The notes under the pieces were generated by a model. The model did no database searches and was not told where the DNA came from. It worked only from the letters and a program-made list of their open reading frames with translations. A DNA stretch of 64,000 bases from the NCBI RefSeq assembly GCF_000027125.1, contig NC_017626.1; one strand, 5' to 3'. A program made the translations under genes and the position numbers. Source of the DNA: Escherichia coli 042 (GTDB taxonomy: Bacteria > Pseudomonadota > Gammaproteobacteria > Enterobacterales > Enterobacteriaceae). Positions 21,781 to 21,940 of this stretch are shown here, in pieces; position 1 is the first letter of the stretch; each line of letters starts with the position of its first letter.

Positions 21781-21940
21781 TGCTCTGTCTCAGGTCACTA
21801 ATACCATCTAAGTAGTTGATTCATAGTGACTGGATATGTTGTGTTTTGTAGTATCATGCAGTCTATTTTTTAGACTAAATTTATTTTAAAACATTGATAT
21901 TATTGGCTTTTGCTGTTTCGCGTTCAGCTTTTTTATACTA
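21781..21940 (+). other. Prophage attR: lambda-like P arm with arm-type Int sites plus 15-bp core GCTTTTTTATACTAA (21926..21940)
   Basis: Core is identical to the lambda att core; P arm contains CAGGTCACTAAT and CATAGTGACTGG; bacterial B' arm (CTTGAGCGAAACGGGAAGG) follows. Confidence 0.85.

Follow-up and report, generated by a model that had tools for sequence, protein, structure and literature searches.

A predicted lambda-type attR at ybhC-ybhB marks the right end of an SfV-like, gtrABC-carrying prophage in Escherichia coli

The 64-kb stretch of E. coli DNA analysed here (the window) very probably contains the attR of a ~40-kb lambdoid mosaic prophage, integrated by a lambda-type Int, in which an SfV/SfII virion module and a gtrABC cassette are joined to a lambda-family sib-attP-int-xis cassette. 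The prophage belongs to a known family of mosaics and, though uncharacterised, is common: 89 RefSeq genomes carry it in annotated form.

The attR junction

The 15-bp core GCTTTTTTATACTAA is present as a single exact copy in the 64-kb window, on the + strand (21927-21941), where ~0.11 matches would be expected by chance with two mismatches tolerated. The sequence to the left of the core has no match to K-12. To its right lies the B' half of attB in the ybhC-ybhB intergenic region, followed by ybhB, bioA and bioBFCD, and from ybhB-bioA onward the gene order is that of K-12. Window positions 22001-26000 are 100% identical to relatives in which this DNA is annotated as ybhB, bioA, bioB and bioF. 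Because the right flank is the K-12 attB half and the left flank is not K-12 sequence, the site reads as P-O-B', the predicted right-hand attR junction of a prophage inserted in the classical lambda attB between ybhC and ybhB. An attP belonging to a circular or excised form was considered and rejected, the B' flank being chromosomal. The first-pass annotation had placed the insertion at the classical lambda attB beside ybhB-bioA, in agreement with the K-12 flank. Its description of the site as lambda-type also stands, whereas its reading of the arm as attP gives way to the P-O-B' structure of an attR. The location that it gave (21781-21940) is right, but the end coordinate cuts off the last A of the core (21941).

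The predicted elements of the junction, from left to right, are as follows.

21746-21780, minus strand: tI terminator, or sib retroregulation hairpin, of the int transcript; near-invariant among lambda, 434, HK106 and HK97
21791-21802, plus strand: P1 arm-type Int site CAGGTCACTAAT; identical in all aligned phages and lying under the lambda 'int 1' annotation
21809-21821, minus strand: H1 IHF core; reverse complement AATCAACTACTTA, which fits WATCAANNNNTTR; invariant in the alignment
21823-21832, minus strand: P2 arm-type Int site; reverse complement CAGTCACTAT; invariant, under the lambda 'int 2' annotation
21835-21847, plus strand: X1 Xis site TATGTTGTGTTTT; same as lambda
21855-21875, plus strand: X2 Xis site CATGCAGTCTATT (21855-21867), overlapping the Fis site F GTCTATTTTTTAGAC
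21887-21899, minus strand: H2 IHF core; reverse complement TATCAATGTTTTA; the ATTGATATT core does not vary and still fits the consensus
21925-21938, plus strand: C-O core; invariant relative to lambda, 434, HK106 and HK97
21925-21945, plus strand: core region C-O-B', CAGCTTT / TTTATAC / TAACTTG
21932-21938, plus strand: 7-bp overlap TTTATAC, inside the 15-bp common core
21942-22031, plus strand: B' side of attB in the ybhC-ybhB intergenic region; K-12 sequence with 1 SNP in ~90 nt
22032-22508, minus strand: ybhB open reading frame, followed by bioA and bioBFCD
22567-23967, minus strand: bioA open reading frame, with bioBFCD following

The P arm was aligned with those of lambda, 434, HK106 and HK97, and the alignment is nearly gap-free. 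Predicted P1, P2, H1, H2, X1, X2 and Fis sites are all present at lambda spacing. The IHF consensus applied to H1 and the definition of the X1 site are the established ones. The X2 site differs from that of lambda by three substitutions, each of which is also present in 434, HK97 or HK106; within the alignment with these four phages, the combination of the three is found only in these prophages.

Comparison with phage records supports the same architecture. A 246-nt att query (21700-21945) matched 78 phage records, including lambda (87.9% over 240 nt, E 5e-79), phage 434 (94.2%, E 7e-84), HK106 (92.3%, full length) and HK97 (91.2%). The homology of the P arm plus sib to lambda, 434, HK106 and HK97 has E-values from 1e-79 to 1e-97, and the depositors had annotated the matched stretch as attP, attP core, sib site or Int-binding sites. 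Chance resemblance to lambda att is ruled out at E 1e-79 and better. The resemblance of core and upstream arm to lambda attP, which the first-pass annotation had noted, is thus borne out by an exact, unique core and a conserved P arm. A search of the att region against Rfam at the gathering threshold gave no match.

The predicted tI/sib hairpin lies just outside P1, and a sib site is annotated at the matching position in HK97. When folded, the minus-strand RNA forms a long hairpin with a U run after it (dG -42.4 kcal/mol, z -4.0). On the minus strand, tI went uncalled in a simple terminator scan, probably because its stem is interrupted; the only call was the boundary hairpin described below.

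Virion and gtr modules

To the left of the junction, window positions 1-21670 are ~96% identical at the DNA level to the Shigella flexneri phages SfII, SfI, SfIV and SfV. The principal genes are listed here.

1-18536, plus strand: virion (late) module, by DNA match to SfII/SfI/SfV and PHROG assignments
456-2189, plus strand: TerL
2383-3624, plus strand: portal
3566-4252, plus strand: prohead protease
4267-5472, plus strand: HK97-family major capsid protein (against HK97-family capsids in the PDB, E 1e-75)
7656-9152, plus strand: tail sheath
9919-11751, plus strand: tape measure
12198-14602, plus strand: Mu gp43/gp44-like hub proteins
15562-16620, plus strand: baseplate J
17199-18536, plus strand: tail fibre and tail fibre assembly protein
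18835-20310, minus strand: gene in the gtrC position, downstream of gtrB; 491 aa, putative serotype-specific O-antigen modifying transferase
20307-21224, minus strand: gtrB, bactoprenol glucosyltransferase, 305 aa; annotated as family 2 glycosyltransferase or yfdH in relatives
21221-21583, minus strand: gtrA, flippase component, 120 aa; PHROG 2224 GtrA-like O-antigen conversion, E 3e-69

PHROG assignments identify the large terminase, portal, prohead protease, major head protein, sheath, baseplate hub and wedge, and GtrA, and the virion frames from TerL to the tail fibre are all open and of expected length. The 359-aa baseplate hub protein matches Mu gp44 (1wru) with E 3e-50. Together with the capsid match and the 96% DNA identity to SfII, SfI and SfV, this upholds the earlier description of the virion as an HK97-type head with a Mu-like contractile tail. 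Siphovirus head and tail genes of the lambda type are absent from the SfV-like late region, and in window positions 1-30000 the only match to lambda is the sib/att segment itself (21672-21945). By its sequence, the prophage is classified as an SfV/SfII-like 'lambdoid myovirus'.

The gtrABC cassette sits between the tail genes and att, in the SfII order of tail fibre, gtrC-gtrB-gtrA and att. The gtrB region has 81% DNA identity to SfII. Between the 491-aa protein in the gtrC slot and SfII GtrII no similarity could be detected, and the PHROGs that this protein matches are all of unknown function. In the gtrC/gtrB-3' region (18743-20306), the window differs from the prophage of strain DG341-1, which is otherwise 99.9% identical, and matches that of PCP06238, which suggests that the serotype-specific transferase was exchanged as a cassette.

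Two smaller features were noted within the late region. A small OB-fold gene, so annotated in relatives, lies on the minus strand (11783-12169) between the tape measure gene and the Mu gp43-like gene, the latter being annotated as a DNA circularization protein. In both the window and PCP06238 it has no canonical start upstream of residue ~82, while a relative at argW has a 148-aa version; the gene may be a decaying moron. Just downstream of the intact tail fibre assembly gene (~18508-18636, minus strand), the annotation of relatives shows a piece of such a gene that is inverted and lacks its N-terminal part, perhaps left over from a tail-fibre segment that could invert. A DNA invertase is present in a relative of the e14 type.

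Module boundaries and a conserved hairpin element

Homology to the gtr module extends from gtrA to ~21712 (in SfII, and better in an argW-type prophage). The SfII homology ends at ~21670-21700 and homology to lambda and HK106 begins at ~21673. The two overlap in a short conserved element.

21668-21716, no strand assigned: conserved boundary element of ~45 bp, with hairpin core at 21677-21710

The hairpin core reads CACAAAGC-TTTGCA-CTGGAy-TGCAAG-GyTTTGTG. The copy in the window resembles the gtr/argW prophages on the left side of the element and equals HK106 on the right side, which places the crossover at ~21679-21701. At the other end of the prophage, read in PCP06238, SfII-type sequence passes into lambda-type sequence ~45 bp upstream of the xis start codon. 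Taken together, the left and right junctions indicate that the transferred unit is sib-P-O-P'-int-xis, a complete lambda integration and retroregulation cassette. No tRNA-like attP is present at the att region in the window.

In 69 phage records the boundary element stands where the late or accessory arm gives way to the att-int cassette. Its carriers include lambda, 434, HK106, HK542, HK633, SfX/SfII, the P22-like Sf101 and Stx phages, and the phages carrying it have at least six different integrases. Compared by eye with the perfect 8-bp outer stem of lambda, the hairpin in the window has one mismatch and one wobble and so is without covariation support. We tentatively consider, as a possibility well short of an even chance, that 21668-21716 is a dedicated module-boundary sequence downstream of int, possibly a terminator or insulator before a conversion gene (gtrA, oac), that also serves as a homology anchor for att-int swaps in lambdoid phages of all three tail types. 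This element is the only part of the region that might repay more study.

The other end of the prophage in relatives

The left end of the prophage lies outside the window and was read in relatives. The same gtrA-sib-attR-ybhB junction occurs, at >=99.6% identity, in 89 of 5426 complete E. coli genomes (~1.6%). Among the matches listed, all 30 of the 30 genomes with this attR junction also have a lambda-type xis-int-attL-ybhC junction, and the attL-attR distance is 39-43 kb in the pairs computed (strains C4 and M7424). The closest complete E. coli relatives are either 98.8% identical over the full length or 99.8% identical with a different gtrBC cassette. Exact-protein matching of TerL gave 8 loci, the best 99.5% identical.

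Individual relatives give a consistent picture of this end. The ybhC-ybhB interval of PCP06238 contains exactly two cores; its attL is B-O-P' with a lambda P' arm, its Int is identical to that of lambda at 354 of 356 residues and its Xis at 71 of 72, and its early region is SfII-like. DG341-1 is 99.9% identical to window positions 1-18742 and has the same int-xis-attL at ybhC, with a lambda-like early region comprising exo, bet, gam, O, P, ren, the nin genes and Q. In two draft contigs (L019 and L020), ybhC-attL-int is linked to DNA that is 99.96% identical to window positions 1-2493 (one mismatch), with ybhC, attL, int and the window-like DNA all within a 20.7-kb stretch and Int identical to lambda at 352/356 residues. 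Across the relatives examined, attL is a perfect B-O-P' and Int matches lambda at 352-354 of 356 residues. The first-pass annotation had made its reading depend on a lambda-family integrase and a matching attL core at the other prophage end, and every relative examined has both there. By analogy, the attL of the source copy would be expected to read GAAGCCT-GCTTTTTTATACTAA-GTTGGCATTATAAAAAAGC and to adjoin ybhC.

Two relatives carry altered copies. In EcPF15 (NZ_CP054227.1), attL and attR are only ~6.5 kb apart, as in a deleted remnant, and in SCU-105 (NZ_CP051738.1) an IS3-family element is inserted in the lambda-type int. These two genomes show in-situ decay of this prophage type.

Comparison with known phages

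No difference from lambda attR/attP is seen in the 15-bp core, the 7-bp overlap, P1, H1, P2, X1, the H2 core or the C site. There is again a sib/tI hairpin, the insertion uses the same ybhC-ybhB site next to bio, and the Int and Xis of relatives are 99% identical to those of lambda. However, the P arm is only 88% identical overall, with X2 and the spacers closer to the variants in 434, HK97 and HK106, and this prophage is without lambda virion genes. The cassettes of 434, HK97 and HK106, which also use the lambda attB, give the best P-arm matches (94%, 91% and 92%, respectively). Unlike the prophage in the window, which has gtrABC at that position, these phages are siphoviruses with stf/tfa upstream of sib. 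The occurrence of the cassette in 434, HK97 and HK106 indicates that it already circulates among phages with different virions. It was found in HK97-like siphoviruses and in one attP match named as a podovirus, and a recently described P22-like phage integrates upstream of ybhC, where lambda attB lies.

The virion module tells the reciprocal story. SfV, SfII, SfI and SfIV share the virion (~96%), the order of tail, gtrC-gtrB-gtrA, att and int-xis, and the region upstream of gtrA. These phages have a 387-aa integrase and an attP containing the 3' end of the thrW tRNA, whereas the prophage here has the lambda-type cassette at ybhC-ybhB; the GtrII of SfII is in addition unrelated to the gene in the gtrC slot here. 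Prophages of the IntS/argW type (KplE1/CPS-53 type) and of the e14 type at icd have virion modules 97-98% identical to that of the window, and one argW-type example also carries a gtr cassette, but these prophages differ in integrase, att site and chromosomal location. The SfV-type virion module is thus known with IntS/argW, e14-type int/icd and SfII-type int/thrW cassettes. The SfV-type integrase with a thrW attP is absent here, and since this trait varies within the SfV-like family, its absence does not disqualify the prophage from membership.

The first-pass annotation had proposed that integration specificity was exchanged between unrelated phage lineages. The exchange is well supported, but the lineages are not unrelated: SfV-like phages have already been classed by Bobay et al. 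as 'lambdoid Myoviridae' (PMC3603311), and the early region of the closest relative of this prophage, DG341-1, is lambda-like. Exchange of the cassette is routine and took place within one recombining gene pool. The phage collection contained no isolated phage with an SfV-like virion and a lambda attP. The best candidate, vB_EcoM-689R6, was rejected as an e14-type element at icd. The literature search found no paper describing the combination of an SfV virion with a lambda cassette.

Proposed mechanism and alternative explanations

Excision and retroregulation of the kind outlined here are established lambda biology. Int, bound at arm and core sites, would bend attR with the help of IHF at H2, Xis at X1/X2 and Fis at F. 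The bent attR would synapse with attL (B-O-P') at the far end, and strand exchange over TTTATAC would excise the phage. In the prophage state, sib/tI at attR would lie ~40 kb from int, and because of this distance int mRNA from the early promoter would escape retroregulation, with Int expressed from that transcript upon induction. After excision, sib would again be downstream of int, leading to RNase III-dependent decay of int mRNA. The attR-side sequence requirements for excision are all present in the window. From the open virion frames, the conserved sites and the complete relatives, we infer that this copy may be able to excise; its completeness is extrapolated from 99.9%-identical relatives. 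As to origin, the cassette may have been joined to the gtr module by homologous recombination inside the ~45-bp hairpin element.

Three other explanations bear on the state or the history of this prophage. The attR could be intact while the prophage itself is defective, for example through a left truncation or an inactivated int, leaving a fossil junction. The left end is outside the window, the relatives include the ~6.5-kb remnant of EcPF15 and the interrupted int of SCU-105, and the OB-fold moron at 11783-12169 is without a canonical start, all of which would fit such a loss. The frames from TerL to the tail fibre are nevertheless open and of expected length, prophages that run complete from attL to attR match the window at 99.9% identity, and each P-arm binding site is conserved, so that we regard a defective prophage as quite unlikely. 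A greater, though still minor, share of probability goes to formation of the mosaic in situ, by a resident lambda-type prophage that swapped its late arm with an SfV-like phage and kept the attR that it already had. Opportunity for such a swap is ample, given that a lambda-type int lies at ybhC in 34% of complete E. coli genomes, and the pairing of one attR junction with different early regions (SfII-like in PCP06238, lambda-like in DG341-1) speaks for ongoing recombination. Against this, the occurrence of the junction in 89 genomes from human, chicken, duck, cow and seawater sources fits phage spread, and a cross between phages could equally well use the module boundaries at which the two junctions lie. 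The structure resulting from the in-situ route and from a free hybrid phage would be identical.

The remaining explanation separates the two parts altogether, with an SfV-like prophage standing beside a distinct lambda-like remnant from which the att arm would come. It is common in E. coli for prophages to stand in tandem at an att site that they share (PMC8112680), but there is one core in the 64-kb window and exactly two in the ybhC-ybhB interval of PCP06238, and relatives have a single int, one set of early and late genes and an attL-attR distance of 39-43 kb. In addition, SfII-type sequence passes into lambda-type homology within the 45-bp element, with no att or int between them. Two adjacent elements are accordingly extremely improbable, and a single mosaic prophage with its attR at 21927-21941 is the preferred reading.

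Other features in the window

The chromosomal part of the window contains expected features. A molybdenum cofactor riboswitch (103 bits, 31466-31610) lies upstream of a moaA-sized frame, and a match to the ES036 (CssrF) sRNA family, just over the gathering score, lies at 48818-48860. An 85-nt tRNA-Gly(GCC) called by ARAGORN (51326-51410) was rejected as almost certainly a false positive, because it lies inside a long, dinG-sized open reading frame (49445-51730).

Occupancy of the lambda site and significance

A lambda-type xis-int-attL junction at ybhC is present in 1843 of 5426 complete E. coli genomes (34%). Classical lambda polylysogeny takes the form of tandem prophages. The earlier suggestion that lambda could not integrate here does not follow from occupancy of the site, for attL and attR keep the core and tandem integration is known, phages that share an att site being found to form tandem prophages (PMC8112680). 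Lambda may integrate less efficiently at an occupied att; whether the resident prophage confers immunity or exclusion is a separate question from att occupancy.

The finding fixes the exact position at which a serotype-converting (gtrABC) prophage ends on its right side, and its value is mainly one of annotation. This E. coli would carry an SfV-type myovirus prophage that uses the integration system of lambda, one more documented case of integration cassettes moving freely in the lambdoid gene pool. With the lambda att occupied in about one-third of complete E. coli genomes, such occupancy is relevant to lambda-att vectors and to lysogeny assays in wild strains.
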